From Moniliella sp. 'wahieum' (Eukaryota): a stretch of 64,000 bases of DNA. Under the pieces are notes generated by a model. The model was given only the letters and a program-made list of their open reading frames with translations. It was not told the origin of the DNA and made no database searches. Location of the stretch: contig RSEE01000063.1 in assembly GCA_003971905.1 (NCBI GenBank), positions 248,001 to 312,000 of the forward strand, read 5' to 3'. The position numbers and the translations under genes were made by a program. Positions 28,333 through 63,048 of the stretch are shown one piece after another; position 1 is the stretch's first letter, and each line of letters begins with the position of its first letter.

Positions 28333-30604
28333 ACTGCATGACGTTGATACTCACTCGGTGGTAGTGGAGAAGCACACGAAGAAAGTGCATCTCTCCCACT
28401 TTGGCTGATTCCACCCTTTTTCGCCCACCCTTCTGCCTCGGGTTGCCCTTAACATCCTCTGCCCCATCTGGGTGCCCTGGCTCTTGGGCCGCATCACTCG
28501 GGGTTGGAAACGACGGATTTCTCAATATCCGATTCAGCTGCTTCGCCTGTTGACCTCCTGGAGAAATGAGGGCAAGGCGCCAGTACTGTGAGTCAAGTGG
28601 ATCGTGTTGTCCGTAGGCGGTGGGCCTCCTGTCCTCCTGTCCTCCTGTCCTCCTTTCTGGAGACTAGGATGCACGCGCCTCGCTACCCCATGTGCTCACC
28701 GTTGCACTTCAACTGAAAGTTCGCCTCGTGTGCATCGGCTTCCACACGGCCGAGATGTCCCACCCTTGTGTCCGGGCTGTGGCATTACCTTCATTTCACC
28801 AAGTGCCTCGTCACCAGCACTGGTGCAGTGCTTGGTTCTTCGGCTTCCTATAGGGTAGTCCCTGCTGCCACAATCTATTTGTGTCAATCGTGTCTTCATC
28901 TAATGGTCTGCTTTGAAGCTTGAAGCTTGAAGCTTCATAGAGATCTTTTTGATTCAGTCACCAGTCACCAGAGAGGACGGAACCCCCTGCGAGCTCGTGA
29001 TGCATAACGTCATGTCTCCTAGAAATTCTATCGGACAGCAAAGCTGTGAATGCGGTGGTGGTTCAACGACAGGTGGGACTAGGCCCAGGAGAGAAAAGAA
29101 CGAGAGAGAGGGATCGTGAAGTCGGGCACAAGACCAGTCTGGGGCCCGATCGAGCTTCAACGTTCAACAGCTGGTTCGGCGCATCCATATGCTTCCACCG
29201 AAACATGTATCCTCCGAGCATCGATCATCGATCATCACATGCACCACATGTCACATGTCACATGCGTCACCCCAACCGTCGTCTCTCCGGCCCGGGCCAC
29301 ACCAGTGCCACACCAGCCTGCCACACACTCGCCACTCAGAAGCGCTCAGAACTCGGAACTACCCACTCGGCACAGCCATGGTGAATTGTCACCACGTCAC
29401 CCTGTCACCACGCTGACACCACATCCCACATGTCCAACTGGTCACGCGGTCACGTGCCACCTGTCACAGGTGTCCTGTGCGTCACATGTCACATGTCTCG
29501 GTCTCTTACGCTTACTGAGTAATAACCACCTACTGAAGAGACTGGAGGTACTAGGTACTAGGCACTGAGGACACTGGCGATACTGCGTACTGACTAGGGA
29601 ATAGTGACTGCCCTCAGGAGTTAGTCACTACTGTCACGAGCCGTGCTGCTCAGCCTGAGCGCTGCTCACGCTGCACGACGTCCAATGTGCTACAGCACCC
29701 ACACCGACAGGGGACCCATGGCGCGTGACGTGACGGAGGAAAGGTACAATTTCGGATAAGGTCCCGAGACCGGGCCCCGGGTACATGGTACATGGCGCAT
29801 GATGCATGAGATCATGAGATCTGAGATCTGAGATCGTAGATCGAGAGACGAATGAGATTCATGATGCATGGATGCATGAAAGGAGAGACGGGACCACGCA
29901 GGGATGTGGTGTTGCATAGCCTGTGTGTGGGAGAAGCCAACGTTGAACGTCGATCAATTTGATCGAACTAGGTCAAGTTGAATATTGAATCAAGTTCCAA
30001 GCTCTCCCAGGCTCTCCCAAGTATCCCATTCCCACCCTGAGCACCCAGGAACAAGACATGGGCGGAAAGGGGGGGGAGACAGCGAGCAACGAGGCGCAGG
30101 GCTGCCAGTGGGAAGTCAAGGAGGGCGACATCTGAGAGAGGAAACAAGAAGGTCGTGGGACGGGAACGAGAATATGAAATGGGAACAGGAACCAAGGAAG
30201 GAATCAAAGCAGGAATCGAATGAGCTCAAAGGGAGCGATATGAGTAGGGGTTCTGAGGATCCACTCAGAGGCCATCTTGGTTGCGCTGCTCAGGTTAGGA
30301 GTAGAGCGCGGGACGAGGATTTCAAGGGCCAGGAGGGCAGAACTGGTGTGCTGAAAGAGAGAGAAAGAAAACAAGAGGTGGCGCCAGGACGGTGGCGAGG
30401 GAAAGGGGTCACCCAACAATTTCTCGTTGTGTTGGGCGCCGGAAGGTCAAAGCGGACAATCAATATAGGACGAGAAGAAGAAAGGTCGGAACCCACTGGT
30501 ACAAGAAACAGAGTGAATACCAGTGGAATGCGACGGCATCGTAAAACTGTAGGCCGGCCCTGTGCTGGCGCAGGTCCGATTGGGATAGAAAAGGGTAGGC
30601 CCTA

Positions 30605-31594
30605 TTACCCGCTCCGGGTCGAGTGGGACGGATTGGCCGAGTCGAGGAAGGCTGGGTGGTGCAGGCCGCCACGGCGGGATGCACGTCGCGGGGCTCGGGA
30701 AATGGTACGGATCGGCACTGTTCCCGATCCCGAGGAGCTGGACGTTCCAGAGGACTGGGAAGCTTTTCCTGCAGCAAGCTGATGGCCAGAGATGCGTTTA
30801 CGATGCACCGACGATTGGCACGTTGCGCCAATACCAAGGCGAACGCACCGTGCACATGGTCGTGCATCGTCACAGCCTTTGGAAGAGCGTTGGCAAGATA
30901 AGCAGGCGTTACGCACTTGCTTGCGTTTCTTGCGCACCTGCGGCTTGGCACCGTCGCGATTCCCTTCCACGGGGAGGAGGAGGAGCCGATGGGATCGTTG
31001 GGATGACTGGGAACAGGCTGGGTGGACGGTACGAGAGCAGAAGGGGAAGGGGGCGGCGGCTCAGTAGTTCCTTCTTTTCCGCTGCGCTTCTCTGACATCT
31101 CTCCAGCTCCTCCGGCTTGCCAGTACGGAAAAATAGACGAATCCTCCTTCAACCAGTGCAGCATCTTCTGGTTGCGGATCAGGCGCACCGAGCCCCCCAA
31201 AGGATGATGTTCCAATTCCCTTCGCGCATGGGGCTGCCGAGAAAAAGAATTAGAGCCCGTCAGCTCGGAAGGGTCCATGGGGCTGGTACAATCCAAGGGT
31301 GTGGACCCAGCGGCCGTGCCAGGGATGGAAGCACGGTAGGCGATCGAAGGTTGACTGAGGATTGGAGCAGAGGCCAGCGCCGGGGACGATAGCCGGCCCC
31401 GATTCTCCAGCCAGCGAGCTTGGCTTGGCTCCCACGGAATGGAACGATAAGGGGGAGCGGGAGGGTCGCCTGAGAAAGGGAGGGGATGGCCCGGCGGGCG
31501 GAGAGAGATGTGTTGAGGAAGTGTGCCGGGGAAAGGGGTCGTTGATGTGGATAGAAGGCTGGAAGAAACGGGAGCTGGTCGAATTGGCGCTCAT
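30605..31594 (-). CDS. Zn(II)2Cys6 transcription factor (Rds2/Ert1/Gsm1-like cluster spacing); boundaries uncertain
   Basis: KRKQVRNACLSCQRSSKGCDDARPCARCVRLGIGATC zinc cluster at ~30805-30925. Upstream frameshifted ORFs with a candidate ATG at 31594. Confidence 0.75.
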
Positions 31595-32157
31595 GCCCGA
31601 ACACAAACTGAGACGGTAGGGCTCAACATGGATTTCCCATGCCGGGTCGAGTGAGGTGCGGGTCTGCAGAAACGGAGGGGCAAGGGGGAGACGGGGATGG
31701 GCCGGGGGACTGGAGGAGGGCAACGACGGTGGGGGCTTGGAAAAGGTTGCAAGGTGCCTGGGATACCCCTGAAGGTGGCCCGTTTGTCCACTACAGCCTG
31801 CTCTGTGCCGGGGGAGATGTGCATGGCAGGGCCCAGCCGGTAGAGGCGGCGTGTCGAGGTGCGGAGAGGGAGATGGTGATGACGGGGGTGGGGATGCTGC
31901 TGCGGCAGAGGCAGGTGGCGGTGGCGGGTGGGTGTGAAGCCTACCGACGTGCCGGAGGCGTGCGGAGGATGCGACCCAAGGAACGGGGACGGTGGATGGT
32001 GCGGAACACGCACGCCACAGGCGGCTGCTCAACCGTGCAACCGAACGTTCAACCCAACCTCAGCCTCGGCCGCACCTCAGCCTGAGGCCTGAAGCTCAGG
32101 CGAGAGCTGCTGGGAGCGGTGCCGCAACTATGTACATCCTCGGCGCCATCTTCGCTG

Positions 32158-32210
32158 CCAGAGCCAGAAGCCTCCAGAGCCAGAAGCCTCCACAGCCAGA
32201 AGCCGCCAGA
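32158..32210 (+). repeat. 16-bp tandem repeat (ccagagccagaagcct) x~3
   Basis: ccagagccagaagcctccagagccagaagcctccacagccagaagccg read directly. Confidence 0.7.
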
Positions 32211-34546
32211 GCAGCCAGGGCAGCCAGAGCCTGCCCACTGCGCCACCCGCCCTCTCCGATGCAGGCACACACCGGATGTCTCACAGCGCATAGCACCTGC
32301 GCCGATCGGAGACGACCCATTCAGAACCGGGGAGCCGCGCGGCACAGCGGCACTGCTGAGCATTAGGACGGTGCCTACGCCGTTGCCCTGTTGCATGCTG
32401 CAGTTACAGTGGTTGTCCCTTCGGCCTTAAGAGCCTAAGCTTAACGCGCGAACGCCGAACGTCACCCGTCATGCGTCACCCGTCAAGCTATCGTTACAAC
32501 TACGTACGTTCACCGTTAGAAAGTTTACCGCTTCAGAGCGGTAGCCGGTAATATAACCGGTAGCCAGTACAGTTGGTAGCCAGTAACCATAAGAAACTAG
32601 TTTCGGCCAGTATAAATAGAACCGGTAACTAGTAACTGGTAACCGGTAACCGGTAATCGACCGGTTATGCCTTGCGCCTTATTGGGTAACTGGATGCTTG
32701 GCACTTGGACGTGCGCTGCCACCTTCGCATGAGCCGCTGCCTCATGCGGCCTGCGGGTGCTCGGGTGCGGATGGCCGATGATCTATCCATGATCAATGAT
32801 GTATGATGCAATGGCCTGCGATGCCAGGCGCACTCGGTCACTCTGTGGGTCGGTGATCATATATCACCATGTCCTTGTCACATGTCACCTTTCAGATCTC
32901 AGATCTGAATCTCACATCTCCACAGGTCACAAGTCACAACCACATCACATGCATCATACGAGGTACTGAGGTTCTGAGTACTCTAACTCCGTGCTGACTA
33001 TACAACTGTCCATTATTAGGTCAACCACGTGCCGCTCTTGCGTTCCTGATTGGTCCGACCAGCCTGACGAAACTAGATCCTGACCGCCAGACTTTTGGCG
33101 TATATGTATGACCAATTTCTCTCGTTACGCCGTACGCGTTTTATTCTGCGGTATACGCGCTACGCACTGCGTTTGTGCTCCGAGGTAGCACAGACAGGCT
33201 GTATCATTATGACTGTGGCCAGTGTAACTATATAGCAAAGAGTATCCCCCCCTGAAAGCTTCAAGGTCGTGATTGTTGGTGTGGTGCGGCTAGGACATAC
33301 CCCGACGTGATGACCGGTGGTTAACGTTCAACGTTCTCGTGTGGATAATGCGCATCTGTATTTGATCGTGATCTTGCTACAGTTGTGTGCTTCCCATACG
33401 GCGTATGCTTCTGTGCCTGTGCCATTGAAGACAGATGCGCCTGGAAGTACGAAGGCCTGACACAGAAGAAAAGAGGCAAAAGCGTGTGTGTATTTTTGCT
33501 GTTTCGCCAGACGAGAGAGTGGGCACTTCCGTTCCCGGATCTATCCCTATTCTTTCCACAAAACCACACTCACATGTGACAATCGAGATCCCCGGTCCCT
33601 TTTCCCCCTGAGTGTGGCAATTGTGCGGGTACGCGGTAAAACAGCGGTATTCAGCACTGGTGGGTAACACACATACATATTTGACAGAGCTGTTGGTACT
33701 TTATCGGTTCTCCGTACTTCATTATACCAAAAGGTGTAAGCCGCGCGCCATAGACTCTCTTGGCCCGACTCAGGATCAGGAACGGATACATGCACACATT
33801 CCCACTGTGGCATCGCACAGGTTATACAATGTATAGTGTTGGTGCGCAGCTGTCATTATATGACGTGAGATGCACGACGCATGAGATGCATCCGTGTATC
33901 TGGCCTGGGTAGATCCCGAGAGAGTATAATATAGACTGTGTCCATGAGAAGCCCAGCGCAAGCTCGTTAGCGCGGTGTGCCTGAGCACAACGTGATAGAT
34001 ACGAAAAGTTCTTCTGATTCGGCGCGTGTCTCCGGTGGGTGCGGTCGGTACGCGCCAATAACATGCAAAAGGTTGAATAAACCCCACAGCCTATAGGACA
34101 GCAAGACGGACCGGGCGAGGTGGAATATCACACGTAACCGTCACGCGTCGCCTGTCACATGTCACATGCCACATGTCACAGTGATTGCTGATCAAAGACA
34201 ATATCTCTTGCTGCCTGCGACCGTCACACATGTGTGCATCCTGCGTACCACCACACGACGAACCAGCGAAGGGCAGCGATCGCAAGCCGAAATTTGATCC
34301 CTGATTGTACTTGAAGAGCTTGAAGCCGGTATATGCTACAGTGACCAGGAGTGCTATAGTGATTAGTGACAGTGACTAGCTTGACTAGCTGATTCGGAGA
34401 CCCAACAACTCGGTTCCGATAATCGGTGCTGGGCAGTGGCGCGGCAGTGGCGTGTGACGGTCAGGTGGCTGGGGAACAAACGGACGTGAGAAATATTGGC
34501 TCGTTGCACACCAATGGAAATACTGAGATGCCGTGGGGGCTTCCCA

Positions 34547-34757
34547 TGTTGACCACCAGTGGTCTAGAGCCCATCGGCCTTCAGTGACACGTGGCCCGAT
34601 CCACACAGTGCACCGGGGCAGTGAGTTCCGACCCTTCCACGGGTTTCCACTGGCCTCCAGGCCAGGAGCCTATCAAGGCCCATAGCTCTAGCTCTCCTTA
34701 GCTCTTGAATGCCATCTCCATCGACCATCGCCAGCATCGCTAGCTAGGCCTGTGACA
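34547..34757 (+). repeat. 5' LTR (211 bp)
   Basis: tgttgaccacc...gcctgtgaca; no differences from the 3' LTR seen by eye. Confidence 0.95.
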
Positions 34758-34903
34758 GAGTACAATCTGAAGCACCCCACTGGCGCAAAGGATCAATACT
34801 CAGCACCACCATCGGCGCCCACCGTCACCACCACCACCCCAACGCCACCATCGGCACCACACACCAACCAATTCAAAAAAAAACAAAGGAAAAATCAGCC
34901 ACC

Positions 34904-36136
34904 ATGCCCCCCGAACTGGAAGAAAACACCCCTCCTCCCGAAGTCTCTGTCATCGAAGAGGCGCAGGACATCGACGAACCGACCACCACCCCTGTCTCCG
35001 ACCCGACCTGGCAACAGGCCCTCACCGACGTCAGAGACAACCTCCTCGCAAGCACCCGCGCGTTCAAGCCCACCAGCGCTGACAATCTCCGCTCCACATG
35101 CCGCTCGTTCGCTACGGATGCACACACGGCGGCGTATGGACCGAAGAGCAAGAAAACACCGGGCGGAAAGGAAAATTGGATCTACACGCTCACCCTCGCG
35201 TTGGAGAAATATGTATTGGCCGTTGAATTCACGAAGCCGCAAAACACCCGTGAGGCCCTTGCATCCGCGAGTGAGGACATGGCCGAGCTTCGCCACGCTG
35301 AGAAACGCGCGTCAAAAGAGATCGAGCGTACCAACGCGACGCGCAAGGACGCCTTCCGCGACCCCACCGAATATGTGCTCTGGGAGCCCTCCATCCTCAA
35401 CATCCTGGACCGCATCCACCCCGCCGCGAAGGACATCGTTCGCTCCGGTCCATCGTCACCACACTACGACTCGTCCCTCGATCTACGCCTCCAGAACCTT
35501 CTGTGGTCCCACCTCCCGAACGACGTTCAATCTGCCATTATTGCACAGGACAACGTTGACACGTCAGCTGACTTGCTCCGTGCCCTGCGAAACAAATACG
35601 GTACGGTCGACTGCAAGACGTATCATGAATTGTCCAGTCGCTTTCACCACTGCTACCAAAACCGGCGCAGCGGGAGCGCGTTCCTATCTGAAATGGGGAC
35701 GCTCCGCAACCGGATCAGCGCAACCACACCGATGTCGGACGAGCAATTCCGCCGTATCCTCGTCGGGGCCCTCCGCGACCCTGGTGACCGTCGCCGCCTA
35801 GAGCACATGACTCTGGCGGAGACAATGCAAGACGTGGAGAGAATCCCAGCGGACCCAGAGTACAGAATTCCGTACCGGGGCCGTCACCCCCGGACCGCCA
35901 ACTCGGGCGCTGGCAAACACGACAGCGCGGGATCCCAGCAGCATAGCGGGGGTCCTCCTGCCGGTGCATCTCCCCGTAGCGGGGGTGCTCTTGCGAGAAA
36001 GCCGTCCGGCCACACCGGGGTTCCTTCGAACAACAAATGGCACCGCAACAGCTCCGCGCGAGCGCACATTGCCACCGAAGACGACGTCTCCGAAGGGGAG
36101 ACCCTGTCTGTGGACCTTGCCCTATCTGACAAATAG
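34904..36136 (+). CDS. gag: Retrotransposon Gag
   Basis: 410-aa ORF just after the LTR, with copia-gag-like TSADLLRALRNKYG; ends in TAG in frame with the protease. Confidence 0.85.
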   Translation: MPPELEENTPPPEVSVIEEAQDIDEPTTTPVSDPTWQQALTDVRDNLLASTRAFKPTSADNLRSTCRSFATDAHTAAYGPKSKKTPGGKENWIYTLTLALEKYVLAVEFTKPQNTREALASASEDMAELRHAEKRASKEIERTNATRKDAFRDPTEYVLWEPSILNILDRIHPAAKDIVRSGPSSPHYDSSLDLRLQNLLWSHLPNDVQSAIIAQDNVDTSADLLRALRNKYGTVDCKTYHELSSRFHHCYQNRRSGSAFLSEMGTLRNRISATTPMSDEQFRRILVGALRDPGDRRRLEHMTLAETMQDVERIPADPEYRIPYRGRHPRTANSGAGKHDSAGSQQHSGGPPAGASPRSGGALARKPSGHTGVPSNNKWHRNSSARAHIATEDDVSEGETLSVDLALSDK

Positions 36137-39100
36137 GAACTCGCGGGCAACCAGGACATCCAGTCTCGTCACGACTCGGGCGCGGATCCTAGCATCTGGA
36201 AGGATCTCAGGGTATTCAAAACCCTCAAGCCCAGCAACCGCTCAATCGAAATCGCTGATGGAAAACATATTAAAGCCAGTGGACGCGGAACATGTAGCAT
36301 CGGTATCAAGTGTACCGACGGCAAATGTATCCATGTAGACCTACCCGGCAGTCTATACGTCCCCGGCATAGCAAGCAATCTCACGAGCGTAGCGCAAATA
36401 AGTGACGCAGGCCACGCATCCTGGTTCGCCCCCCACCGAAAAGGTATCTGGTTAAATGACAAGCATGGCAAATATCACCAAATCGCGGATTCCTCATACA
36501 AGCTGAACATCGTCCCGAAACCGACACCCACAAACGAACACGCGGCCAAAGCTGCCGTCGCCACCCAACACACACGCAGCCAACACCATCGAGCACGTCA
36601 TGTACGTTCACCAACAGTACAACCACGCCGCGCTAGACCTACTCCACGACACTAACCGCCAACGCGCGAGCGAGCCTCCGCGTCAGCCCTGCCCAAATCC
36701 GACGCATCCGCCCCTTCTGGCATTGTCCCACCTGCACAAAAGCTCTGGCCAAAGCGCCCAGCCACCCTTCGCGCCACGGCCGCCGCATTTCGGAACGTCC
36801 TTTCGAAGTACTGCACGCCGACGTAGTCGACCTCCCTCGCATCACTGGCATGGGACATGGATACGCCCTGGTCGCGGTTGATGACTGGAGCCGTTACACC
36901 TTCGCTGTTCCCCTAAAGACGAAAGGACAAGCCACGGCGGAGCTGAAAAAACTCATCACCCGCGAGCAACGCATCGGAAAGGACCGTCTGCTTCGCATCT
37001 TGAAGACAGACAATGCCCCCGAGCTCACCAGCGCACTCCGTCCGTTCCTTGAATCCGAAGGTATCACGACGGAAACCACCATACCAGGCCAAAGTCAATC
37101 AAATGGGGTGGCCGAGCGAGCCATCCAGGCAATCACCACACGCGCGCGCCAACTCATCATCGCCTCGGGCCTCCCGACATCAAACTGGTGGCAGGATGCC
37201 TTGCTGGCAGGGTGCTGGACGCACAACCTCATGCCACCGACATCTCCACGCCAGGGCACACAATCTCGGGCTGAGCTGTACAAGGGGTCACCCCCACCGC
37301 TGCCAATGCACGCCTTCGGATCCTTGGCGTACCTTCACCTGGCCCAGGACCAACGTGACCATAAGCTCAGTCCGCGGGCTGTCGAAGCCATGCTCGTCGG
37401 GTACGACGCAGGTCGAGGTACAAAGGGTTGGCGCTGGGCTGTGTACGACCCGTCCATGGGCACGTTCCGATCCCAATGGGCAAAACCATACAAGTGGACC
37501 CAGCGCCAATACCACGAGGTTTTCCCCGACCGCTTTCCGCCTGACGTATCTCGCTTCCCCGCTCAACCCCTGCCTGACAGAACTATGACTGACACTGAAA
37601 CCAAAAAGGGAGAAGAAAAAATGAACAAAATTGAAGTTGCAAATCCCAACACACCACCGAGAATCAACACTGATACTGACGCGACCATCGCAAGACAAAA
37701 CGACACCCATCCAACCACCCCCACCACCAGACGGTACCCCCCCGGACCCACCAGCGCCGTTTTGACCTTGACTGGGCACAGCTCCCCGTAGCGGACGACC
37801 CTCATGATGGTGACTTCCACGCACACGCTGCCGCGCTGCCTCCGGTTCCCCTCCCTGACGGTAGTCGTAGTCCTGCGATCGGCCTACGCTTCCCACTGCC
37901 CGACACTGCCCTGCCCGCGTACAGCGACGGTCTCCATCCGCCTGAATACAAGGCGATGATCGCCCTTAGCGAGCCAGGGCCGCACGAGCGCATCCAGCTC
38001 ACCAAGGACGGAGTACCTGTTGCACCCAAGACAATGAAGGGCCTCCAATCACACCCCCTCATTCGAACCAGTGCTGGAGGCGATGCGCACGGAAATCGAC
38101 ACCCTAGCCCGCTACGGCACATTCGAAGTCGTCACGCCCCCTCCAGACGCGCAGCTGCTGATTGGTCTATGGCGCATCAACACCAAAACGGACGCGGACG
38201 GAAATTTCCTACGCTACCGAGCCCGTCTCGTTGCCGGGGGCCACCAGCAGGATGCTGACACATGGGGACAAACATTCGCCCCTGCCGTGCGCACTCCTGC
38301 CATCCTCAGCCTTATCGCCCTTGCTGGAAAGTTCGGCCTCCACCTCTTCACTGCTGATGTGCACTCTGCCTATTTGAACGCTCCCCTCACGGAAAAAGTG
38401 TACCTCCGCCCACCCCCATTCTTTCCCGAGGAAAAAGGCAAGGTCTGGCGTCTCCGGAAAAGCCTATATGGCCTCCACCAATCCGGCGCAAACTGGGCGG
38501 TATTCATCCGTGACTTGCTCCGCGGAGACATGGGTTTTGTACAATCTCTGGCTGAGCCGTGCTTGTTCATCCGACCCCGTAAAGGCGACACGGTCCTCCT
38601 TGCCGTGCACACCGACGATCTTCTCATCGCCTGCACGTCTCACGCACGCTACGATTCCTTCCTCACTGAGATCAACACCCATATCGAGGTGCGGGGAAAC
38701 GGCCCCCTACACTACCATCTTGGCTGCCAGTACGACACCATAAACGGGAAACTGTACCTTAGCCAGCCAAAATTCATTGAGGAATCCATTGCCAAACATG
38801 AGGTTCCGCCACCCCTGGTTATGGGCCTCCCCCACCCCAGCAAGATGATCCCCGCGCGCACCGACCCCGAACCGCCCGCACTGCCCGCCGAGAGACGCGA
38901 CTATCAAGCCAAAGTAGGATCTGGGCTGTGGGCTGCCCGCATGTGCCGCCCTGATGCGCTGTTCGGCATCTCAGCTCTAAGCCGAGCAACTGCCGATCCC
39001 TCCAAGGCCCACCGCGCTGCGGCAACAAACTTCCTCCGCTACCTCTACGGTACCAAGGGCTACGGTCTCCGACTAACACCCGAGCCTAACGCACCCGCTC

Positions 39101-51657: not shown

Positions 51658-53733
51658 GTGCGGTGGGAGCTGCCGCGCTGCTTGGCACACTGGAGGGCGG
51701 GTTGGGGAGCGTGGCGCGGGGAGCATGGGAGGGGAGGGGAGGGGAGGAGATGGAAGGAACTGGGAGGCGGGTGTGTTGGATTGAGTTAACGCGGACGCAG
51801 GGTGTCGATGGGGCCGACGGGCAATGGCGATGGCAATGGCGATGGCGATGGCGAGGCGATGGGGGCCCTTCGTGCGGCCAGGGTTTGCGCTGGCGTGGGC
51901 ACTGTGCCGCATTCATTCGACTCGCATCGGCCCTGGCGTGGCCCCACGGGCCAGGGAGCACGGGGCAGTTTAAACCCGTGCTGCTGCTGCTGCCCCCGCG
52001 CCACACCACACTGCGTCCGGTGTGCGCTCCGTGCGCGGGTGCGGGACGAGTGGTGTGCTGCGCGCTGCTGCCAGCACGGGGCCTGCGCCCGCGCCGATGA
52101 GCACGGATACTCAGATCTCAGACTCAGATCTCAGACGAAGTGCTTCGGGGTACGCGGCCGGCAAGCTTTCGGAATGGCGGTGCCTTGTCGTCCGAAGCGA
52201 GTGCCCGTGCTGGCGAGGGGCGCTTCGCCTTGAAAAGACCCACGACGGGCAGTCTGTCTGCGTCCGCTCCGGCTGTGTCGGCTGGTGGCTGCGGCGGGTT
52301 GAGCGTTACGCGTTACGAGCGTTGCATATTGAATGTACATGGAACGTACGTTGAACGTGAAATTGTGACATGCACAGGTGACAAAAGGCACTTGCCCCAG
52401 AGGCTCAGGCTGAGCGCAGGTGCCCTGATCGATGATCGATAACCGAAAACCCCTACGAGGCGTCCGCGCCAGTGTGGCTCGCGCTCAGCGCTAAGGCTCA
52501 GCGCCCAACCAGCAGTCATGGGATCATGAGATCGATTAAGGAACCTAGCTTCGAAAGCACCACAACGACGACAACTGAGTACACCTGAGTATACTGAGTA
52601 CACTGAGTACTTGGTGACTACCGGTAGTGATGCATGATGGATGATCGATGGTCAATATTCAATCAGCGTCAGCGCTGAGGCTTAGCCTGAGGGCCTGAGG
52701 CCTGAGGAGGGAAGTACAAAACCAACGGGGCAAATATGCACGTGGCCTGCAAGGCTGCAAGCCTAGCTGGGCTGAGCGCTGAGACGCCGCAACGTTAGGA
52801 TCTAGCTTTCACACGCATTTCACATCCATTCAATATTCATTGAGTTCCTAGCTACTCGTTACTAGCTTTACATTGAAATCTTACCAGTTCTCGATTATCC
52901 TGAGCGGCCTGAGCGCTGAGCCTGGGATTCTGAGATCTGAGATTGCATCACATTCACATGCTTAGCCAATGTCCAGTCGATCACAGCCACTATCACATGC
53001 ATGTCACATGCATGCCACATGCATCCAAAACACGTCCGTCAGCGCCTCAGACCTGTCGCCTAGCTGCAGGAGGCAAGATCGGAGATCTGATCTGAGAGGG
53101 GGTTGTATAGGGTTTTCTTGCTCGGACCGCAAGCTCTTAGATTCTCAAGCTTCAAGCCTCCAGTTGACCCGTTGACCGGTAACCGGTAACGGTAACAGGT
53201 AATTGTAACGGGTAACCAGATGGCCAGTCCTAGTCACCTAGTTACTAGTCACTCATCATGCATCATGCATCATGGATCATGTGCTCCAGCATTTTCGGGT
53301 CGGGCGAATGTGTTGGTGAGTGTCACAGTCTTCATTGTAATCGAGTTATGACAATCATGTCCGCGCTTTCTTTCCTAGTTCGTCACGCGTCAGGCCTGAG
53401 CCTGAGCGCTGAGCCTCAGGCTCAGGGCACCTTCTTCTCTCTGCCAATTAACAAATTAATTGTCTCCCTAAGTATTTCTCTTTTGCTAACACCGTGGGCG
53501 TTCTTTTCTTACACCACACACACTTCAGCGATTAATTGGTATCGATGTTCTTATACGCAAATTTGTGGTCCGACGGTTGCATATATGGAAGCAGGTTTTT
53601 CCCCCTGGTTTTGACGACGCGAGGATACTACGGCACCAAGACGGCGAACAAGTTGTTTGCGCATTGGAAGGAGTGGCTACTAAGTCTCAGTGGAAATGGT
53701 TCCTCGTCGGATGTCAACCACGTTCCTCCGTGA

Positions 53734-53875
53734 CCACACGCGCTTCCTAGGGTACGGGAACGGATGGCGTGAGCCGGAGGGTCCTGATATCCTGGCGACC
53801 CCCCTGGTTCCTTGACCCTGCTGGTGGCGCCCCAAGTAACCCCCGCAAGATGAACGGTTAGGTTTAGACGTAGTG
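53734..53875 (+). repeat. Diverged ~140-bp dispersed repeat, copy 2 (partner 19144-19285)
   Basis: Direct alignment to 19144-19285. Confidence 0.8.
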
Positions 53876-55749
53876 TTCCCCTGTCCCAGCCTTAAGCTCT
53901 GCCAATGAAATGGAAGCAGCGATGGAAGCACAGATGATTCCGAGAATCAAAATGTGTTGAAGAAATCGGGCCATACCAGCCCCACCACCTCAGGATCAGA
54001 TCTCAGACGGAGAATTAGTTGCAACAGAGCCGCCATCAGACATGGTGTCCAGGCGAAGTGGTGCCGGAGGGAGCCGCGAATGGTCAAGCTTCAAAAAATT
54101 GACATCTGAAGGAAGGAACTGGGGATACAACAAAGAAGGGAGGGGCTCACTGTGGGCAGGGGGTGCGCAGCTTCCGAGTCAAACCTGCGGCTGGATATAA
54201 GCGAGTGTCACCAATGAACTTAAGGGGCCGTGCTGGGGAATCCTATAGCGCTCCCCTCTCTCATCGTGCGATCTCATCAAAAGTATACTCTCCACGATAT
54301 ATACAGGCCCTGTCATCGACTTCATCACCTCGATCAACATCGTTCTGTTGGGGCCCGTAGTCCCGTACGTAGGCCAAAGTGCTTTATCACCATTTCTCCT
54401 ATTGTGACCTCCGAAGAGTCCGCGTGTATATTCGGCGTGTTCGAACCCTTGTCTCTCTTCCATCACCAGGTGTGGCAGAAGGCCCTCAACGTTCAACGTT
54501 CAACGTTCAACCACCTTCGTATTAGCTCCACATGATGGGATTTCCAGCGGTTCTCCACCCAAAATCTGGGTTCCTCCGAATCTCGTGTTCAAAGGTTTAA
54601 CTTCAGACGTGAGTGGCTTTGGGAATGCACAACGTTGCTCTAGGGCATAGAAGACACAGCCCTGCTTTGTCTATAGAGACTTTTCTTCTTTAGCCGCGGT
54701 ACAACTGATGCACAGTAGCTAGTATGCATAATGCCGTATAGATCACTAGCCCTACCCTCTTGTGGCTCTGAGATCTGAGATTTGTGATGAGTGACCACAT
54801 TCTAACGCATGGAACACGTGGCGCTCTGCTGCTATACGGAAATCATGTAATCATTTCACAAAAATTGGGGGTAGAGATACAGTGACTGTTACAACAGCGT
54901 GTGATTCGTCCCATCGATTATACAAGAGGGCTCGGCATTGGTATACTACGGGTGACCGGTCACCATAAGGATGGACCAAGTGCTATGTGCTTGCTGGATT
55001 TTGGGGCCAGAGTAGAGCAGCGAGAAGTGGAAGGTGCGGGAAAGGGGAGCCGGAAAAAAACGAGACAAATACAACCAAATTGGCAAGAGACACAATAATC
55101 AGGGGTGTTTGTGGGACCAGCGCTTCGCGGGCTTTCGCCCCACGTTGCGCCCCTCGTCCGTGACATGTGACATGTAAGTCTGTGCCACTCGTTCTATAGC
55201 TATGCTGTGCTCAGCCTGGGACCGTGGGATCCACACTTCATAAGTTTAGAGCTTAGCTCTGGGACTCTATGTTTACACATTCACTGGTCACGGTTACAGG
55301 TACACAGCAACGCGTGCTCCTCTGTATACCGGCATATAATAATAGGAAAGGGTTATAATTAGGATTTTAGTGATTCATGCGTTACTAGTATAATTGCGAT
55401 TAAGTGAGAACGTTGAGCGAATGCGGTGCACGCAACGGAGACAGCCGCCCTTCTTTTAACGGTTAAACGTTTTAAACGCTAAAGCGGTACATTTATACGT
55501 GGGGGAGGGCGGGGTCGAGAAAACACCATGACATGTGGCAGCCTTTCATACCACGGAGGTCCATGGCCTCTCAGATCTCAACGACGATCGATATCCTCAG
55601 TGCGTCGCCGCGAAGGGAGACGCAATCGGTCTTAGTAGTGACGGGTGACGCGCAATGGTACATACAATACGCGTCCATGTTCAACGACGTTTTCTCAACC
55701 TTTTCTCAATCTCCTGAAGAAAACCTGGGAACCTGCGCATTAGGCCTGG

Positions 55750-57560
55750 GCCCCTAAGTGCCTGAGTCTCAGGCCCGAGGGCGTCTTCTTCAGCCCTTTC
55801 AGCCTTTATGCACTTTATGAGCTTCAGAGCGCTCAGCCCTTTCAAGCTTCAGGCTTATTCATTAATCATTCTTCAATCAAAAAGCTTCACTAGTCACTAC
55901 GTCACTAGTCACTATAGCCACTAGCTTCAGTAGCATCAATATGCATCATCAATCAACGTAATAGCGGGTTATGCATGGTTATGCTTATAATTATGCACCA
56001 CGCGGTGCAGTCTGTGCACATGCAGCACATCCTCCTTCTCTGGAGTCCTCATGCACTCATGTATATACTCAGTAATACTCAGTCTGAGTGCTATTACTAA
56101 GTACTAATAATAATCGATCAATCAAAATGGGTCTCTATTCTCACTTAATTTTTGTTTTACCAATCTCTTCGTGTGCCTTAAAACGTTAAGTCATGATGTG
56201 CATGATGCATGAAGAAAAGACCGCGCGCTACCCCTGCTTCCCCTCGTCAAGGAGAGTCCGGCTCTTCCGGTTACTTCGTCACCAAAATACTCTTGACAAG
56301 TCAGTGACTAGTAACGGATGACCGGTGACCAGAGGACGCTAGTAAAGCTTCGCTGGAAGCTGGAAGCTCGAGGAGCTTGAAGCTTGAGGGCCTGAGGCTA
56401 GCTTGAACCTATAATAGCTTGAAGTTTGAAGTCGCTGGTACTATATTGTTCGCTTCAGCTGTCACATGTCACTCATGTCACATGCAATGTCACACGTCAC
56501 ATCACACCTAACAAGTACTAAATACTAATTATTGAGCTGAAGGCGCGGGCCTGCTTGGTGGGAATGCAGGGTCTAAGAAGACGGCCTAAGAATGACTTGC
56601 CCCGGGAGAATACCCTTGTGTCAGATTTATTTGTACGCATAGGCGCAGAGGCTCAGCCCTCGCGCTCATGCCCACGATCACGTCGATCACATCGATCACA
56701 TGCACATACCATGCAGATGTATCATGCATCACGCGTCACGCGTCACGCCTCATACTGAGGTCTCAGATCCTCCTGAGGCTCCCGGTCACCGGTCACCGGT
56801 CACCGTGACCTGACCGCCTGACCGGTCAGATCTCAGAACGCAGAACTCAGATCTCAGACTGAGTGGTTTCCTCGTGTTGAACGTTCGTTGAACGTTGAGG
56901 AGGTTGAACGTTGACGCGCTTACGAATGGGCTCCACTTGCTCCACTCCTTCCCCACAACATCGCTCCCTAAGGCCTTAGCCTAAGGCCTAATCCTTGCCT
57001 GGAGTCGCTTAGCGGTAAAAGTACCTCAAGCTTCAAGCTTCAAGCTTCATATAGTTCAAACGTTCACACCTCAATAATAAGCTTCAAGCTTCAACCTCGT
57101 TCTAGAGGCTTCCGTTCCAAAACGTTGTCCTGTGTGTTGGGACACTAGCGCAGTAGTGTGTCAGCGGCATAGTCGGACTCTGGCGCTCACAACCACTTCC
57201 ACACGACAGCTAGCTCTCTTCTAGTTCCGCCCGGGCGGAAGTCTGGAAGTCCGACTTGCCTCCTTCTCGAAGCTTCGGTAGTCGTAGCTCAGTCTTCCCT
57301 CGCTTCCACTATCGCCTCCTCCTCTTCCTCTCCGCTATTCTCTCCGCTATTTTCTCTGCTATCGATCACCAGCAATCAATATTATTCAACGTTCAACGTT
57401 CAACGTTCAACCCCTATCGCCTATTTGACCTCCAGTTCTTCTTGATTGCCGTTCCGCTTGGCATCAGGATCCCGTCACATCACTTGTTTTCTGTCTCATG
57501 CTGATACAGGTTAAGCTTCATGCAGCTTTTCAGGCTTCAAAAAGCTTCGAGCTTCAAGGA
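55750..57560. repeat. Densest cluster of 7-bp-period palindromic micro-arrays
   Basis: (ACGCGTC)n 56730-56748, (ACCGGTC)n 56782-56804, (AAGCTTC)n 57026-57049, (AACGTTC)n 57385-57411, (ACATGTC)n ~56460, (ACTAGTC)n ~55888. Confidence 0.85.
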
Positions 57561-59888
57561 AATCATAAGAACTATAGAAGCCGGTAAGTGCTGAGCGCTG
57601 GGACAGAGTGAGCTTGGCCGCTGCTCAGCGCTCATTAACATTTCACATTGCTCTGTTGCTGAGGCTTAGGGCCCGTTCGCGAAGCATTTTCTTACGATTT
57701 TGGCAGCCAAGTTAGGGCTTAGTGCTCAGGATTAGCGCTCAAACAACCCGGCGAGCGGAAAAGAATGATTGAGGATCGAGATGATCGATCATACGCTGAG
57801 TTGTATACACGGCGGGTAAGATGCATAACGCATGACACGCATCATGTATGACGCATGGCGTGATCAAAAGACTCTCCAGAGAAGGTATGAAAGCGGGATA
57901 ATGGACGGGAACGAGAGAGGTGAACAAGTGTCATACCGGATTTTGTCATGACGGAGTAGAATACGGGAAGGGAGCACAACAAAAAAGGGGGGATTAGACA
58001 TATGGGGAAAGCGGCCATGAGCCAAAGTTGAGAAGGAAGTTGCGCCCAACAGGGGATGAAAATACCAGGAAAGAGTAGCACCACACGCCTTTTGTGTCAG
58101 AGGACAGACACAGCGAGAGGCATGTAAAAGGAAGAGACACCTGTTTAAGGACCACACAGTGAATGGAACCCAGAGAGCGAATTATCTTTCCTCGGTCGCA
58201 CCTCACAGCTAGTATAGGGTCCACCCATAACACAACAAGACTAGAGAAACGATCAACTTCTTTTGCTTCTGTCACTGTGGCTGTACAGGAAGGCGATGGA
58301 TGTATCCATAAATAGGGTCAGTGAAGAACAAGGCTCAGAATGTGGGGATTTGGGATCTGTTGGACGGCAGAAAAGTCGGCCCTGCTAAAAGTGAATAATG
58401 GTGGGGAGCCACGGAAAAGAGGAATGCTAGGGAAGTGTGATGATAAAAGGTGCGAATGCTTGTTTTCGTACTATGGTAATACGTAAGAGTGGGACGGAAA
58501 GGGGAGCAAGAAGGAGAGATATGTATATGACATGCCGTGTATCCGTGATAGTTGGAAAGCTTTTGCCACTTGTGGAGAAATTGCTTTATTGGCAGTGGGC
58601 AGTCAGTCTATATGACCTACAAGAAGGCCCGATATTCTTTCCGTGGTGATGGACACTAAAATACAGGACACTCTTATGACAAAAAGCTTTTACACAAGCA
58701 TATTAGGGAGAATAACGGTAGGCTTTTCCTGACGTAGACATTTTGTTGTTGGGGAGTATATAGCCAGGGCCCTACGAGTCTTCCAAGGAGGAGATGAGGC
58801 CGGAAAAAAGCCAGCAGACCAAAGGGCACAGAATGGACTGGAAGAATCAAGAGCGATAAGAGAAAAAGGGGCCTGGGAGAAGAGCTAAGAGCGTCGAGCA
58901 TGGTCCATCTATTTGTTTTATATCAGCCTCAGTGTCTAGTGCGAAACACAACATATTCACAGCCATAGAGCCCCAAACATGGGCCCATGAGAAATGAGAC
59001 GGTCCAGTAAGATCTTTCCAACAATGATGAACTTTTCCCAGTGGCCTTAATCGTGTAGCATCCTCTAACAAGCTGTCTTATTGGCAAAGAGGGGGGGAAA
59101 CGATTCTTGTGCATGCATTCGTGGTTTACTATAGTGGTGTCTTTGTCGCCATCCACCGCCGGCATGAGAAAATGATGATGCCTGTTCTGTAACAGTCCGG
59201 GCTAAACGAGGGAGACCAAGGTCCTGTCAGAGGTAGGGGGAAAGGCAAGATCGTTCGTGGGAGGAAACAGAAGGCATCAGGCAGAGAACAGAAGCAACAG
59301 GGAAGGGAAGAGCAAGAGACACAGGATGCAGAATTCGAAATTGGAGCGAGCTTAGTCATTCGGTGACAATGCCTGTTCTCTGCCCGTAATCAACAGATGT
59401 AGACGTCTCCTTCTGTGCACCACACCTTTCGGAACGCAAGAACATTTTGGTCCTTTTTCTCTCCCATCAGTCCCTCATGTTGTGATCCGTCTCGATCCCA
59501 GATCATCCAAACGCTTCTGTTCCCACCACAATTCCTAGTCCGAGAGGGTCATCTGTATATGTTTTCCTTTCCTTCCACGCCAGGATTCCTCGTCATCCCT
59601 CATAAACCCGGTTCAGTTGATGTGATTATCCTGGATAAAGCGTACACACTTTCGTGTACTCCCTTTTGTAGTGCTCCAAACTATGCGAGTGGCCGCGTGA
59701 GCAAGTACAACCCCCTAGGAAAGGGGAAAATGCTCAATATAAGTATAATTGGCGAGATATGATTGTCCTTCCTACCCCGTGGATGCACACCTCCCCCCGA
59801 TCTGTCAGAACTCAATCAATACGAAAGAAGGCGCCAATATCACCTCTTCAAAGAGCATCTCTTCCAACTCTCACCAACTATAACTACT

Positions 59889-60473
59889 ATGACACTTGAA
59901 ACCCATGATCAGCAGAGACGGCGAAGCCTCTTGTCTGAGAACGATACTGCCACATCAGGAAGAGCCGCTGAAAAGAGAGGATGTGCCCCATCAAAGTTGG
60001 ACATATACTTCGCCCCAGATAGCGCGTCTTTTGTTCCGAGATCCACAACATCCCCCCACCATGCTCGTTCCCCACTCAGGTCTTCAGAGCCTGAAGTGTT
60101 TCCTCTTCTCGGGTCAAAAAGTCTTGTGATCCCACATCCTGCGGCCACTTTTCGTAGGCTTTTGCGGAAGAGAACCCGCGGCGCCTGGATTTCGGCCGTT
60201 GCGCGAGAGAGGGGTGATGCCCAACATCTCCTTTTCCCAGCAAGAATGATGATGTTGCCCAAGGACGGGGCCACCCCACTAAAGGTGCCCCGTTATCCAC
60301 CTCACCCACTAGACTCTGCTTGTCATGGACGGGCTCCGGACTGGAGTCCAACCTATCGTTCAGGGGTGCGTTTTCCCTGGGAGGAGGACAGGCCACTGAC
60401 GGTTGATCATCGAGCCCGAACACTACTGGCAGATCCGAACGGAGATAGAGACGAGGTGAGGCCTCCTAGTTGA
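59889..60473 (+). CDS. Possible orphan ORF
   Basis: Open frame 59763-60473 (first ATG 59889) in an otherwise ORF-poor region; no recognisable motif. Confidence 0.25.
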   Translation: MTLETHDQQRRRSLLSENDTATSGRAAEKRGCAPSKLDIYFAPDSASFVPRSTTSPHHARSPLRSSEPEVFPLLGSKSLVIPHPAATFRRLLRKRTRGAWISAVARERGDAQHLLFPARMMMLPKDGATPLKVPRYPPHPLDSACHGRAPDWSPTYRSGVRFPWEEDRPLTVDHRARTLLADPNGDRDEVRPPS

Positions 60474-63048
60474 GGCGTCGGCTCGAGTGGCAAAAGGTTG
60501 CGTATGCACCGGAACGAAAAGGACTATTCGCATGCCTGTAGTATATGGTCCTGAAAGTGTGGTTGTGGCCAAGGAAGGTTATTGACACAGGAAAAGACAG
60601 GGTAAGACAGGTCCGGTCTAACAGAACAGCTCACAACTCTTGGAGAATCGCCCCATGATCCGTACAGAGGAGACTGAAAGCAGGAGATCCACGGCAATGG
60701 ATGCCGGGTCGAAAAGATACGGAGAAAGATCAAGATGTGGTCGTTTTATCAACTGCCACATTGAAACCCTAAGAGTAACAAAGGCGTTGCCTGGGGGTCA
60801 CAACGATGGATTATCCAAAAATGTCGCACAAAGGACGAAAGACGAGAAGAGGAAAAGGCCAAGTGTGGATGAAAAAGACGAAGTAGACGAAAGAAAAGAC
60901 GAATAAGACTAAATGGTCCTCTAGGGGGAAAGGAACAAGGATCAAGGGTCACATGGGTCATATGCAGGCAGGATCTAATATAAGGAATACAATAGATAAC
61001 ACAACGAATAAAAGAGGGAAAGGAATTGGGATAAGTGCCTCCCGGAAGAATAACAGACCATCAGGAGGGAAATGTTCTCCCGCACTCAGCTGGCAGGAAC
61101 GGAAGAACAGTCAAAACTAGAAATGCTCAAGGTAAAGGGCAGGTTCTCCTCTCCTCATCAGCTATATAAATGCAAAAGGCATGATGCATGATGCAAGAGG
61201 CCCGTGAGGCCTGAGGGGAGAACTTCTCACGATGTAAAGGAGACGCTTAGATGAGGAACCTGACCTCCAGATCCGGAGGCTCAATTTCGAGCTCACTTGC
61301 GTCCAAGACCAAAGACCAAATAATTGAAGTAGGATAAAACTGGCAGGGACTCAGAAGCTATGCACTACGGACCACCTCTGCTCGGCCATCCGAAAGGGAG
61401 AGATCAAGCTGGTTGCATATAGATCCATGGGAACATGCTCCGTTAGCATAACCGAGTTCATATGTTGATGAGACCTGGAGTCCGGATGGTCCTCGAGGGT
61501 GATGCAATCGCACTGTTGGTGGTGGTGGTGTCTAAGCCAACCAGCAACGCCTACTGAGGAACATCATGCAGCGAGTCGCCACCAGGGGCTAAGCTGCGGA
61601 GAACAAGGAAAAACAGGAGAGAAAAACAACGGAACTCCTAGGCCTGAGGAGGAACTGAAAGGACATTGGCCAAAGCACGAGCCACCCGGTGGCTCAACAT
61701 ATGTTTGTTCAACGTTCAGACAAGCCAGCCTACTTTGCTGTCTTGGAAGCCTGGAGATGTAGACCTATAAAAACCCACATGCAAGGGAGACAAAAAAGGG
61801 GGAGGATGAGCTCGGTCAGCCCGCGTAACTTATTACACACCGGTACATATTAGTAGGCAGGCGTCAAGAATGAGGACTTCTGATGAACTTTTGCGGATGA
61901 ACTTTTGCGCATGTTGAGCCCCATAGAACCGACAAAAGATATACTAGCAATGCACTGTGGTTGTACTTAATCGATGCTCCGGTAGAAGTAGTTCTGGAGA
62001 TAGGTACAGAGCCTATGCGAAGGGTAGAGGGTCTTAAAGCACACTATCGCGACGTAGAGGAGCGACCGGGCGGATAAAAGACAGGTGATGCCTACCACGC
62101 AGGACGGTTATTGTTGCGACGGTGACTGCCTTCATCGATCGCGGAGCACTCCCGGCCTCATTAGCCCGATGCTCCGCGGACTCGGAGGACTGCTGATGCG
62201 CGCGTACCCGCGTAAGCCAACGACTAGTAGCCTTCTCCTGTAGCCTTGTCCTGCTTCCTACCATCAAGCCTATTATCTCTCGCCCGCAATCGATCGCCTA
62301 CGCTACTGACCTATAAACGCTTCAGCATCCATTGCGGTCTCCATAGTCGAGTTGACGAGGACGTCGCTACACGGTGCGGAGCGTCTCGCCCCAACACAAA
62401 GGCAATATGGCAGTCGTTTGAAGGCCTTAGACCTCAGACTAAGGCCTTAGGCCCCTTGGCCTTAAACCCGTTTTTATTACTGCTGCTGTTTTTCCGGGCA
62501 GGTTACCAGTTACTAGTTACCAGTTACCCCGGTCACCGGTCAGTCACCCCATTCCTATGTCGGCGAGTTAGTAGACCGATAGCACTCTTGGCACAAAAGT
62601 TTATTCAACGTCAGATTAATACACTAACCCAACTACCTTATGACGTCTTTCGATGATCTTGACGATCGATGATCGGGCATATAGGATTCCCTGCTCAGGC
62701 ACTCAGGCGCTCAGGCCTCCGGCCTGAAATCGGGAGTGGCTTGGATTAGCGCTTAGCTGATTTCAACTACGGAGGTAAGGCCAGCAATCCCCAGGTTAAT
62801 TCCTGATTATGCGCGTTGGCGTGTCTTTTACGCCCGTAGTTGGTGCATTGTTCCAACAGGCCCTCAGCAACATTCGAGATGCCGAGCCCGTCCGAGCGCA
62901 TTGAGCCGCTGAACCACTCGGCCCACGAATGCCTTGCTGTAGTTGCTGGTGATACTGGTGATACGTCTGGGTATAAAGCAAACGCACCCAGACTCTCGGG
63001 TAGGCGCAGTGATTCTGCCCACCGTCTCCTTTCGTTTCTTCCATCATC

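Follow-up and report, generated by a model that had tools for sequence, protein, structure and literature searches.

We analyzed a 64-kb stretch of DNA from Moniliella sp. 'wahieum' (contig RSEE01000063.1, positions 248,001 to 312,000; hereafter the window) and found that its non-coding part carries numerous short tandem arrays of different 7-nt units that all follow one grammar: a T-N-A trinucleotide followed by a 4-bp palindrome. This pattern is genuine, with overwhelming statistical support and a sharp definition. Its units are anchored exclusively on T-N-A, its minimal element is a 12-mer, its copy number decays steadily, and within the window it is restricted to non-coding DNA. We interpret the arrays as mutational scars, left where a lineage-specific break or nick at T-S-A (S being C or G) was followed by fold-back repair that inserted 7 nt and then by slippage – a reading to which we give about even chances of being right.

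All counts cover this one 64-kb window of one assembly. We refer to positions 1-28800 as the gene-dense part and to 28801-34546 plus 39821-64000 (~29.9 kb) as the array-rich part; a copia retrotransposon occupies the interval between the two array-rich segments. In array formulas, a point separates the T-N-A anchor from the 4-nt core.

Enrichment and grammar of the heptamer units

Period 7 dominates the tandem repeats of the window. Counting perfect tandem arrays of at least 2p+3 nt, p being the period, we obtained 27 for period 7 (at least 17 nt), 6 for period 6 and 2 for period 8. At lag 7, the match rate climbs to 0.315 between 28.8 and 34.6 kb and to 0.290 between 39.9 and 64 kb; positions 1-28800 and the copia interior contain only the lag-3 signal of coding DNA. 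The 60 perfect period-7 runs that reach 14 nt include 38 made up of a palindromic hexamer plus one base, and a first-pass annotation of this DNA had proposed that such hexamers begin with A and end with T, which holds for all 38. That annotation had also put the number of hexamers in use at a dozen or more of the 16 possible; 15 of the 16 A-N4-T hexamers occur, AAATTT being the sole absentee.

We compared hexamer-N-hexamer dimers at spacers of 0-4 nt with 100 order-5 Markov shuffles. Dimers of A..T hexamers with a 1-nt spacer occur 31 times, against a shuffle mean of 0.32 and a maximum of 2, and every other combination of class and spacer (0-4) holds at most 2. Extending the search to perfect period-7 runs of at least 12 nt, we observed 93 runs of the T-n-A class in the window and 2 each of the C-n-G, A-n-T and G-n-C classes. 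The 93 runs are divided between the array-rich part (84, where chance predicts 0.67), the first 28.8 kb (9) and the copia element (0). The T-n-A palindromic class, which comprises 64 of the possible units, accounts for 84 of the 171 period-7 runs in the array-rich part.

Palindromes counted singly reveal the same restriction. A..T hexamer palindromes (262 versus 95 expected) and T-n-A odd heptamer palindromes (263 versus 101 expected) are enriched, and the remaining palindrome classes lie at 0.8-1.1 times expectation. It is the overlap of the two that carries nearly all of the excess: A..T hexamers overlapping a T-n-A heptamer palindrome number 105 versus ~2.8 expected, and isolated ones reach just 1.3-1.4 times expectation. 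Units with one mismatch are enriched as well (46 runs versus ~7 by chance). Intact units cover ~4% of the window's non-coding part (1328 of 29,926 nt), with degenerate derivatives covering more. The density of TNA-palindrome-TNA units is 3.27/kb in the array-rich part and 0.38/kb in positions 1-28800, with no same-N case in the copia element, in keeping with the earlier remark that they are scarce in coding DNA and in the retrotransposon.

The spacing of the anchors defines the unit. In the array-rich 29.9 kb, TCA-N4-TCA occurs 82 times, versus 5-26 for other spacings, and the corresponding same-anchor N4 pairs number 47 for TGA, 21 for TAA and 14 for TTA. The 4-nt core is palindromic in 55 of the 82 TCA pairs, 29 of the 47 TGA pairs, 10 of the 21 TAA pairs and 4 of the 14 TTA pairs. 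Inverted arrangements are rare (TCA..TGA 14, TGA..TCA 12), and the middle base is therefore repeated directly rather than inverted.

Each unit pair can equally be described as a 5-nt direct repeat, TNAxy, around a 2-nt inverted filler. T-n-A anchors account for 120 of the 159 structures of this kind (TCA 53, TGA 52, TTA 8, TAA 7), the middle base being C or G ~7 times as often as A or T (T-S-A far above T-W-A), and palindromic fillers number 0-10 in each of the fifteen remaining classes of anchor, defined by their first and third bases. Within TNAxy-NN-TNAxy, the filler NN is y'x' in 120 of 146 cases and the complement of the opposite flank in 2. The first-pass annotation had suggested hairpin opening with P-nucleotide-like additions, an idea that gains specific support from this filler. 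TNAxy repeats with spacers of 0, 1, 3 and 4 nt occur 9, 12, 32 and 32 times, and the fillers of 1, 3 and 4 nt are rarely palindromic.

The minimal element is the 12-mer TNAxy·y'x'·TNAxy, that is, a 5-nt direct repeat plus exactly 2 inverted nt. Exact 12-nt runs start at the T in 10 cases, 2 nt earlier (the mirror image) in 9, and in the other five phases in 5. The left and right extensions of single-core elements are distributed as (0,2)=10, (2,0)=9, (1,2)=8, (2,1)=4, (3,0)=6 and (0,3)=2, with (0,0)=2, (1,1)=0 and (2,2)=0. All 39 runs of 12-13 nt orient as TNAxy·y'x'·TNAxy, and in 62 of 105 terminal elements the first hexamer comes after a T plus the same N.

The number of chains declines roughly geometrically with their length, from 65 singles (5.6 expected) through 26 doubles (0.44 expected) and 7 triples to 1 quadruple. 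Different cores are mixed in phase in 11 of 35 chains, as would be expected if any T-N-A could give rise to a unit from the dinucleotide on either side of it. The mixing, the 15 cores and the unrelated flanks sustain the earlier view that the shared rule is symmetry, here together with a fixed T-N-A, rather than one sequence; the cores and flanks also rule out a single ancestral motif, transcription-factor site or repeat family as the source. Neighboring arrays have the same middle-base orientation in 40 of 67 pairs, by our own arithmetic about as independence predicts.

To place the window among other DNA carrying such arrays, we scanned Joint Genome Institute (JGI) metagenome contigs for (TCAACGT)3, collecting 121 loci (413 kb) out of an estimated ~1800 stretches in all. 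Arrays of (TCAACGT)n with n of at least 3 are widespread in metagenomes, on contigs of 38-69% G+C, and usually stand alone. We observed a second palindromic heptamer array at 1 of the 121 loci, and units with cores other than ACGT occur at 0.044/kb in these loci versus 2.8/kb in the window (~65-fold rarer). Homology between the 121 loci and the window is limited to the array itself. The combination of many heptamers under one grammar is thus not general to DNA that carries such an array. The boundaries of 128 unrelated (TCAACGT)n arrays are uniform over all phases; these arrays are all at least 21 nt long and hence provide no control for the 12-mer rule.

Positions of the arrays

The arrays cluster as listed below. 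Every example array of the first-pass annotation that we checked is present where it had been placed (e.g., AAGCTT-G at 28913-28935 and ACGCGT-C at 56729-56748), and AGCGCT-G and AATATT-C/G recur as 12-13-nt runs. The range it had assigned to the pattern, 28900 to 62760, agrees with patches spanning 28.9-62.7 kb but leaves out an isolated array at 278-291.

278-291: (TCA.GGCC)x2, isolated, in the gene-dense part
28913-28935: (TGA.AGCT)x3 (AAGCTT-G)
29219-29264: neighboring ATCGAT-C (29219-29236) and ACATGT-C (29245-29264)
29481-29497: (TCA.CATG)x2
29800-29846: mixed chain TGA.TGCA TGA.GATC, then (TGA.GATC)x3 and degenerate units; AGATCT-G at 29815-29835
32620-32660: T-A-A anchored chain TAA.CTAG / (TAA.CCGG)x2 / TAA.TCGA; ACCGGT-A at 32638-32656
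32857-32939: degenerate period-7 tract with TCA.TATA, TCA.CATG and (TCA.GATC)x2
34153-34180: (TCA.CATG) array, immediately upstream of the copia insertion
40147-40169: (TCA.ACGT)x3 (AACGTT-C), ~0.5 kb upstream of the RPS26 coding region
43304-43318: (TGA.ACGT)x2
43746-43787: (TCA.GGCC)x2, then (TCA.CATG)x2
44116-44224: (TCA.TGCA) array and chain TCA.GGCC TCA.CCGG
48168-48185: (TAA.GGCC)x2 (AGGCCT-A)
48446-48465: (TGA.TGCA) array (ATGCAT-G)
48509-48532: TGA.TCGA units, then TCA.TCGA (both orientations of N)
48598-48653: (TGA.GTAC) array, TAA.GTAC and derivatives; AGTACT-G at 48605-48622
52110-52136: two TCA.GATC 13-mers
52426-52440: (TGA.TCGA)x2
52628-52943: patch of single 12-13-mers with cores TGCA, ATAT, GGCC, GCGC and GATC
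53145-53416: patch with TCA.AGCT, TGA/TAA.CCGG, (TCA.TGCA)x2, TCA.CGCG TCA.GGCC and TGA.GCGC
54486-54511: (TCA.ACGT)x3.7 (AACGTT-C)
54767-54781: (TGA.GATC)x2
55160-55175: (TGA.CATG)x2
55842-55914: TCA.AGCT, TCA.TTAA and a (TCA.CTAG) array with one 8-nt unit; ACTAGT-C at 55887-55914
56199-56502: TGA.TGCA, TGA.CCGG, TGA.AGCT and a degenerate (TCA.CATG) tract
56722-56918: densest patch, with TCA.TGCA (TCA.CGCG)x2, (TCA.CCGG)x2, TGA.CCGG TCA.GATC and following units, (TGA.ACGT) units and TGA.CGCG; ACGCGT-C at 56729-56748
56967-57094: TAA/TTA.GGCC units, (TCA.AGCT)x3 TCA.TATA and (TCA.AGCT)x2
57385-57411: (TCA.ACGT)x3.9 (AACGTT-C), the longest perfect array, 27 nt
61179-61216: (TGA.TGCA)x2 and a TGA.GGCC 12-mer
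62501-62542: TTA.CTAG 13-mer and (TCA.CCGG)x2

Beside the perfect palindromic arrays, 29388-29470 holds degenerate GTCACC/GTCACG-type units of 7-8 nt, with TCA anchors and non-palindromic cores. These could have come from the same process, either as units that later decayed or as aberrant products.

Most arrays lie in two unusually long stretches, 41000-49700 and 52100-62800, that lack open reading frames (ORFs) matching Pfam and flank a C2H2 zinc-finger gene. G+C falls to 0.47-0.55 in both, and the subparts 45-47.9 kb and 58-61 kb are nearly array-free.

Origin of the arrays

In the process that we favor, events would take place at T-N-A, mostly at TCA and TGA, in non-coding DNA. Each would convert 5'-TNAxy-3' into 5'-TNAxy·y'x'·TNAxy-3', a precise insertion of 7 nt made up of a 5-nt direct copy and a 2-nt inverted (fold-back, P-nucleotide-like) copy. 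The product would contain two T-N-A sites, permitting repeat events on either side, and use of the upstream or the downstream dinucleotide would place units with different palindromic cores next to one another in phase. Replication slippage would later expand, contract and mutate the 7-nt units, with point mutation contributing too.

The geometry that we favor, which would reproduce the product in one pass, begins with a nick or a 5-nt staggered break directly 5' of the T. In the displaced 5-nt strand, the T at the 5' end would then fold back onto the A two bases away, a 2-nt fill-in would copy xy, and the strand would be ligated. Such a fold-back would explain the complementarity of T and A and the composition of the repeat (5 = 3 + 2). 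It leaves the non-use of C-N-G, G-N-C and A-N-T unexplained, which leads us to suspect that a sequence-specific enzyme starts the event. We infer, then, a birth of the 12-mer by insertion from TNAxy, a fold-back geometry, and an initiating sequence-specific nuclease, transposase or topoisomerase-like activity. More tentatively, and with a probability well short of even, the genome may possess an endogenous 'heptamer writer', a dedicated, sequence-specific nicking, transposase-derived or topoisomerase-like activity that cuts T-S-A and, by a fixed fold-back geometry, inserts exactly 7 nt (5 direct plus 2 inverted).

Several observations weigh against this account. A Pfam search of 16 + 143 ORFs recovered copia pol only, with no candidate enzyme, intact DNA transposon or transposase fragment in the window. 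The direction of change, insertion from TNAxy, is one that we infer. The filler is nearly always exactly 2 nt and from one flank, while known hairpin-opening repair yields variable lengths from both flanks, and the TNAxy 5-mer is asymmetric, whereas a symmetric transposase would give a symmetric target. C-N-G, G-N-C and A-N-T are absent although fold-back alone predicts that they work equally well. A T-N-A plus palindrome lacking a second T-N-A is unenriched (118 versus 102). The middle base is C in 42 arrays and G in 26, and 53-57.5 kb contains 30 TCA-type versus 8 TGA-type units, with a mixture elsewhere; a strand-symmetric process predicts neither the overall inequality nor the local skew. 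Finally, the evidence base is one 64-kb window from a single assembly.

Two rivals would build the same units by familiar routes. Hairpin-assisted replication slippage alone, with no specific enzyme, would let self-complementary 7-nt units form T-N-A triloop hairpins, expand and persist. Predicted array folds do consist of 5-bp stems with T-N-A triloops, the geometric decay in copy number (65/26/7/1) is compatible with stepwise slippage, and long arrays are bounded in all phases, in the window as in the 128 unrelated (TCAACGT)n arrays. Period-7 runs without a palindrome show ~3-fold enrichment too (87 of the 171 in the array-rich part lie outside the T-n-A class, versus ~25 of any kind by chance). 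We nonetheless judge slippage alone to be rather improbable. The hairpins are marginal (8 arrays at -1.8 to -7.6 kcal/mol, with z below -2 in 1 of 8), and closure by C..G or G..C, though more stable, is represented by 2 runs per class versus 93; weak predicted hairpins and missing G/C-closed classes exclude hairpin stability as the driver, and they leave the structural chromatin signal that the first-pass annotation had offered without support. A 7-nt tandem duplication would give at least 14 nt, yet the commonest state is 12-13 nt with fixed boundaries that are never (1,1) or (2,2); by our own arithmetic, zero (1,1) cases among 19 twelve-mers, given three equal phases, has a probability of ~(2/3)^19 = 5e-4. 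Single units are 12-fold enriched (65 versus 5.6), and environmental DNA with the same array lacks the syndrome. Alternatively, the units could be excision footprints of T-N-A-duplicating cut-and-paste transposons (PIF/Harbinger, Tourist), in which 2 nt of either inverted terminal repeat would stay behind together with the two 3-bp duplications, as in the TA-CA|TG-TA of Tc1/mariner. Passages of PMC4561436 lend this model a precedent: they describe for PIF, Pong and mPing a 3-bp T-N-A target with a free middle base (TTA, TAA, TCA and TGA all work) and a 3-nt stagger, and for Mariner and Stowaway footprints that retain both duplications and element-end nucleotides. TNA + xy·y'x' + TNA is formally a footprint of this kind, and a duplicated target would account for the identity of N on the two sides (TCA..TCA 82 versus TCA..TGA 14). 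An origin in footprints is still unlikely in our view. Excision of the mPing type is reported in the same passages to be precise (PMC4561436). Fifteen cores would need ~15 families with different termini, and the extra xy after the second TNA, which a transposon-end origin does not predict, is the rule (39 runs). Simple footprints at TNA targets of the PIF/Harbinger type fail on the same ground, with 2 cases of bare TNA-core-TNA, the (0,0) form, versus 19 twelve-mers and 20 thirteen-mers. The 64 kb yielded no inverted-terminal-repeat transposon and no DDE transposase. The ~7-fold preference for C or G as the middle base is a further difficulty; T-W-A is the usual Harbinger target.

Selection or error could also be invoked. 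Functional cis-elements – binding-site arrays or DNA-structure signals kept by selection in promoters or regulatory regions – would accord with the clustering of arrays in ~1-kb patches beside genes, among them the array upstream of RPS26, and with the arrays that fill the large ORF-poor region upstream of the C2H2 zinc-finger gene; TGA/TCA, moreover, presumably resembles a bZIP half-site. A protein cannot read 'any 4-bp palindrome', however, and the 15 cores are interchangeable. The units are short, often degenerate and decaying by point mutation, the 7-bp spacing is off the helical repeat, and the cruciform or hairpin potential is weak, all of which makes this explanation very unlikely. An assembly or sequencing artefact, a concern with a single assembly as the source, is scarcely credible: the arrays are short (12-27 nt), differ from one another, are surrounded by unique sequence, occur only in non-coding DNA and end at gene and retrotransposon borders. 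We know of no platform error that writes units of T-N-A plus palindrome.

Further candidates were tried and set aside. An ordinary slippage microsatellite would have an unconstrained unit and at least two full units; here 84 of the 171 period-7 runs of the array-rich part fall in one class and the modal run is 12-13 nt with a fixed phase. A transcription-factor site array would have a constant recognition sequence, and only T-N-A is constant here, the core taking 15 forms. A single dispersed repeat or miniature inverted-repeat transposable element (MITE) family was rejected on a repeat search of 28.8-64 kb, which returned only the copia long terminal repeat (LTR) pair and array-level matches with unrelated flanks. 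Boundary counts disposed of a 3-bp duplication with a 4-nt footprint ((0,0)=2), a 7-bp duplication of a palindromic target y'x'TNAxy ((2,2)=0) and a symmetric 5-bp duplication of x'TNAx with 1+1 P-nucleotides ((1,1)=0), the last of which would also permit only 4 cores. Reasoned on paper, hAT-type offset hairpins would center palindromes on A-n-T rather than T-n-A. A flap or fold-back of variable flap length predicts periods of 5, 9 and 11, and those classes of 5-nt repeat and filler are unenriched.

Comparison with described systems

Transposases that form hairpins on flanking DNA offer one of the closest parallels to the favored break and fold-back repair. According to passages of PMC5499845 and PMC4561436, hAT, Transib, RAG and MULE transposases form such hairpins, which are blunt for Transib and RAG, and the footprints left by Ac/Ds copy the neighboring DNA in palindromic form. 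Transib and RAG make 5-bp target duplications (in the part of PMC1131882 that covers them), and sections of PMC12730594 describe basidiomycete hAT lineages with 5-, 6- and 7-bp duplications as well as RAG-like CMCT elements. In these excerpts, the hAT, Transib/RAG and MULE hairpin footprints resemble the window in that their junctions hold both a directly duplicated target and inverted copies of flanking nucleotides (PMC5499845, PMC4561436, PMC1131882, PMC12730594). Coding joints of V(D)J recombination share the same '5 direct + 2 inverted' type, with a stagger or duplication plus a hairpin-derived flank copy, as far as these sources describe them (PMC5499845, PMC4561436, PMC1131882).

The likeness is partial. 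An inverted flank copy between two duplications is present in 120 of 146 cases in the window, but a symmetric target with variable P-nucleotides from two flanks is not seen (opposite flank in 2 of 146). Unlike the hAT, Transib and MULE footprints, the filler of the window derives from one flank only (120 versus 2) and is exactly 2 nt, within an asymmetric 5-mer that has T-N-A at one end; the window is also without an element, and its events recur at one site, building arrays. Transib targets are given as CASTG and CAWTG, not T-N-A, in the relevant passage of PMC1131882. The exact 2-nt filler, the one-sidedness and the asymmetric position of T-N-A in the 5-mer fit no described element.

Other systems share single features. 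PIF/Harbinger and Tc1/mariner elements also place a directly repeated T-N-A with a free middle base around a 4-nt palindrome, formally a duplication plus 2+2 terminal nt, in the account excerpted from PMC4561436; the window differs in having a 5-nt repeat as the rule, 15 cores and a C or G middle base, and mPing excision differs in being reportedly precise. Heptanucleotide microsatellites such as (TCAACGT)n likewise consist of perfect head-to-tail 7-nt units that change copy number, but elsewhere (TCAACGT)n stands alone, whereas the window has dozens of palindromic units with one grammar and one minimal 12-mer. In quasi-palindrome correction by template switching, a few nt copied from the wrong strand create a short inverted repeat or make an existing one perfect; in contrast to the window units, the process involves no fixed anchor trinucleotide, fixed 7-nt product or direct 5-nt repeat. 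In vitro, a nickase and a strand-displacing polymerase generate short repeated palindromes that contain the nickase site, according to section 4.7 of PMC10520511. This 'ab initio' synthesis, as that section presents it, resembles the window in coupling a site-specific nick to fold-back or strand displacement and in setting a constant site within variable palindromes; being a test-tube reaction with bacterial enzymes and long polymers, it is an analogy only for a fungal nucleus (PMC10520511, section 4.7).

A search of the main texts of open-licence papers and bioRxiv, literal array strings included, found no description of the pattern. Fusarium mitochondria contain palindromic (A)n-(T)n microsatellites, a different phenomenon, as described in part of PMC7218506. 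The pattern is thus without a named counterpart in the literature searched and is best filed as a variant of templated or hairpin-type insertion scars combined with microsatellite birth.

If the grammar extends genome-wide, it would constitute a clean, readable mutational signature, with one trinucleotide anchor and one exact 7-nt product, and would point to a DNA-processing activity undescribed in fungi. It would also provide a testable case in which microsatellite-like DNA and short palindromes are born, not merely expanded, with intergenic DNA written de novo. Should a 'heptamer writer' exist, a measurable share of intergenic DNA would be built de novo by a new class of templated insertion mutagenesis, a new route for the birth of non-coding DNA and microsatellites. 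Promoter regions could be shaped by such a process, which could also give rise to palindromes resembling restriction sites, introduce stop codons in all frames and serve as a source of hypervariable markers. Even a grammar limited to a few regions would be an unusual local repeat landscape relevant to annotators.

Genes and other features of the window

The window is eukaryotic DNA with a G+C content of 49-64%. The identities of its thioredoxin reductase to basidiomycete proteins indicate basidiomycete-like fungal DNA. The genes and the retrotransposon are as follows.

8672-9685, minus strand: thioredoxin reductase, 78-80% identical to basidiomycete proteins (Naganishia, Tilletia, Malassezia, Tulasnella) and 88% to one other record
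Within the first 28.8 kb: isocitrate/isopropylmalate dehydrogenase fragment (Pfam)
Within the first 28.8 kb: Ras-family GTPase (Pfam)
15365-16654 and 27289-28332, same strand, ~12 kb apart: pair of histidine-phosphatase (His_Phos_1) genes
34547-39820, plus strand: young Ty1/copia LTR retrotransposon with identical 211-bp LTRs, TG..CA ends and the target-site duplication TCCCA
~40.4-41.05 kb: RPS26
~49.7-50.6 kb, minus strand: C2H2 zinc-finger gene
63.0 kb: oxidoreductase N-terminal domain

The copia element encodes rve and RVT_2 domains and looks intact and apparently young; its polyprotein is 98% identical to a protein in one public assembly record. The two His_Phos_1 genes may be paralogues. 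We found no Rfam hit at the gathering score and no tRNA in the window, and the arrays are not derived from a known structured RNA or tRNA by this measure.

Two further repeat types occur. C-rich/G-rich low-complexity tracts of the CCCCCT/AGGGGG type are located in the gene-dense part at 3591-3712, 6892-7063 and 25563-25614, and explain the period-7 runs without palindromes in that part. At 32158-32230, 3.4 copies of a 16-nt unit, CCAGAGCCAGAAGCCT, are arranged in tandem and overlap a 9-nt repeat; they have no relation to the heptamer grammar.

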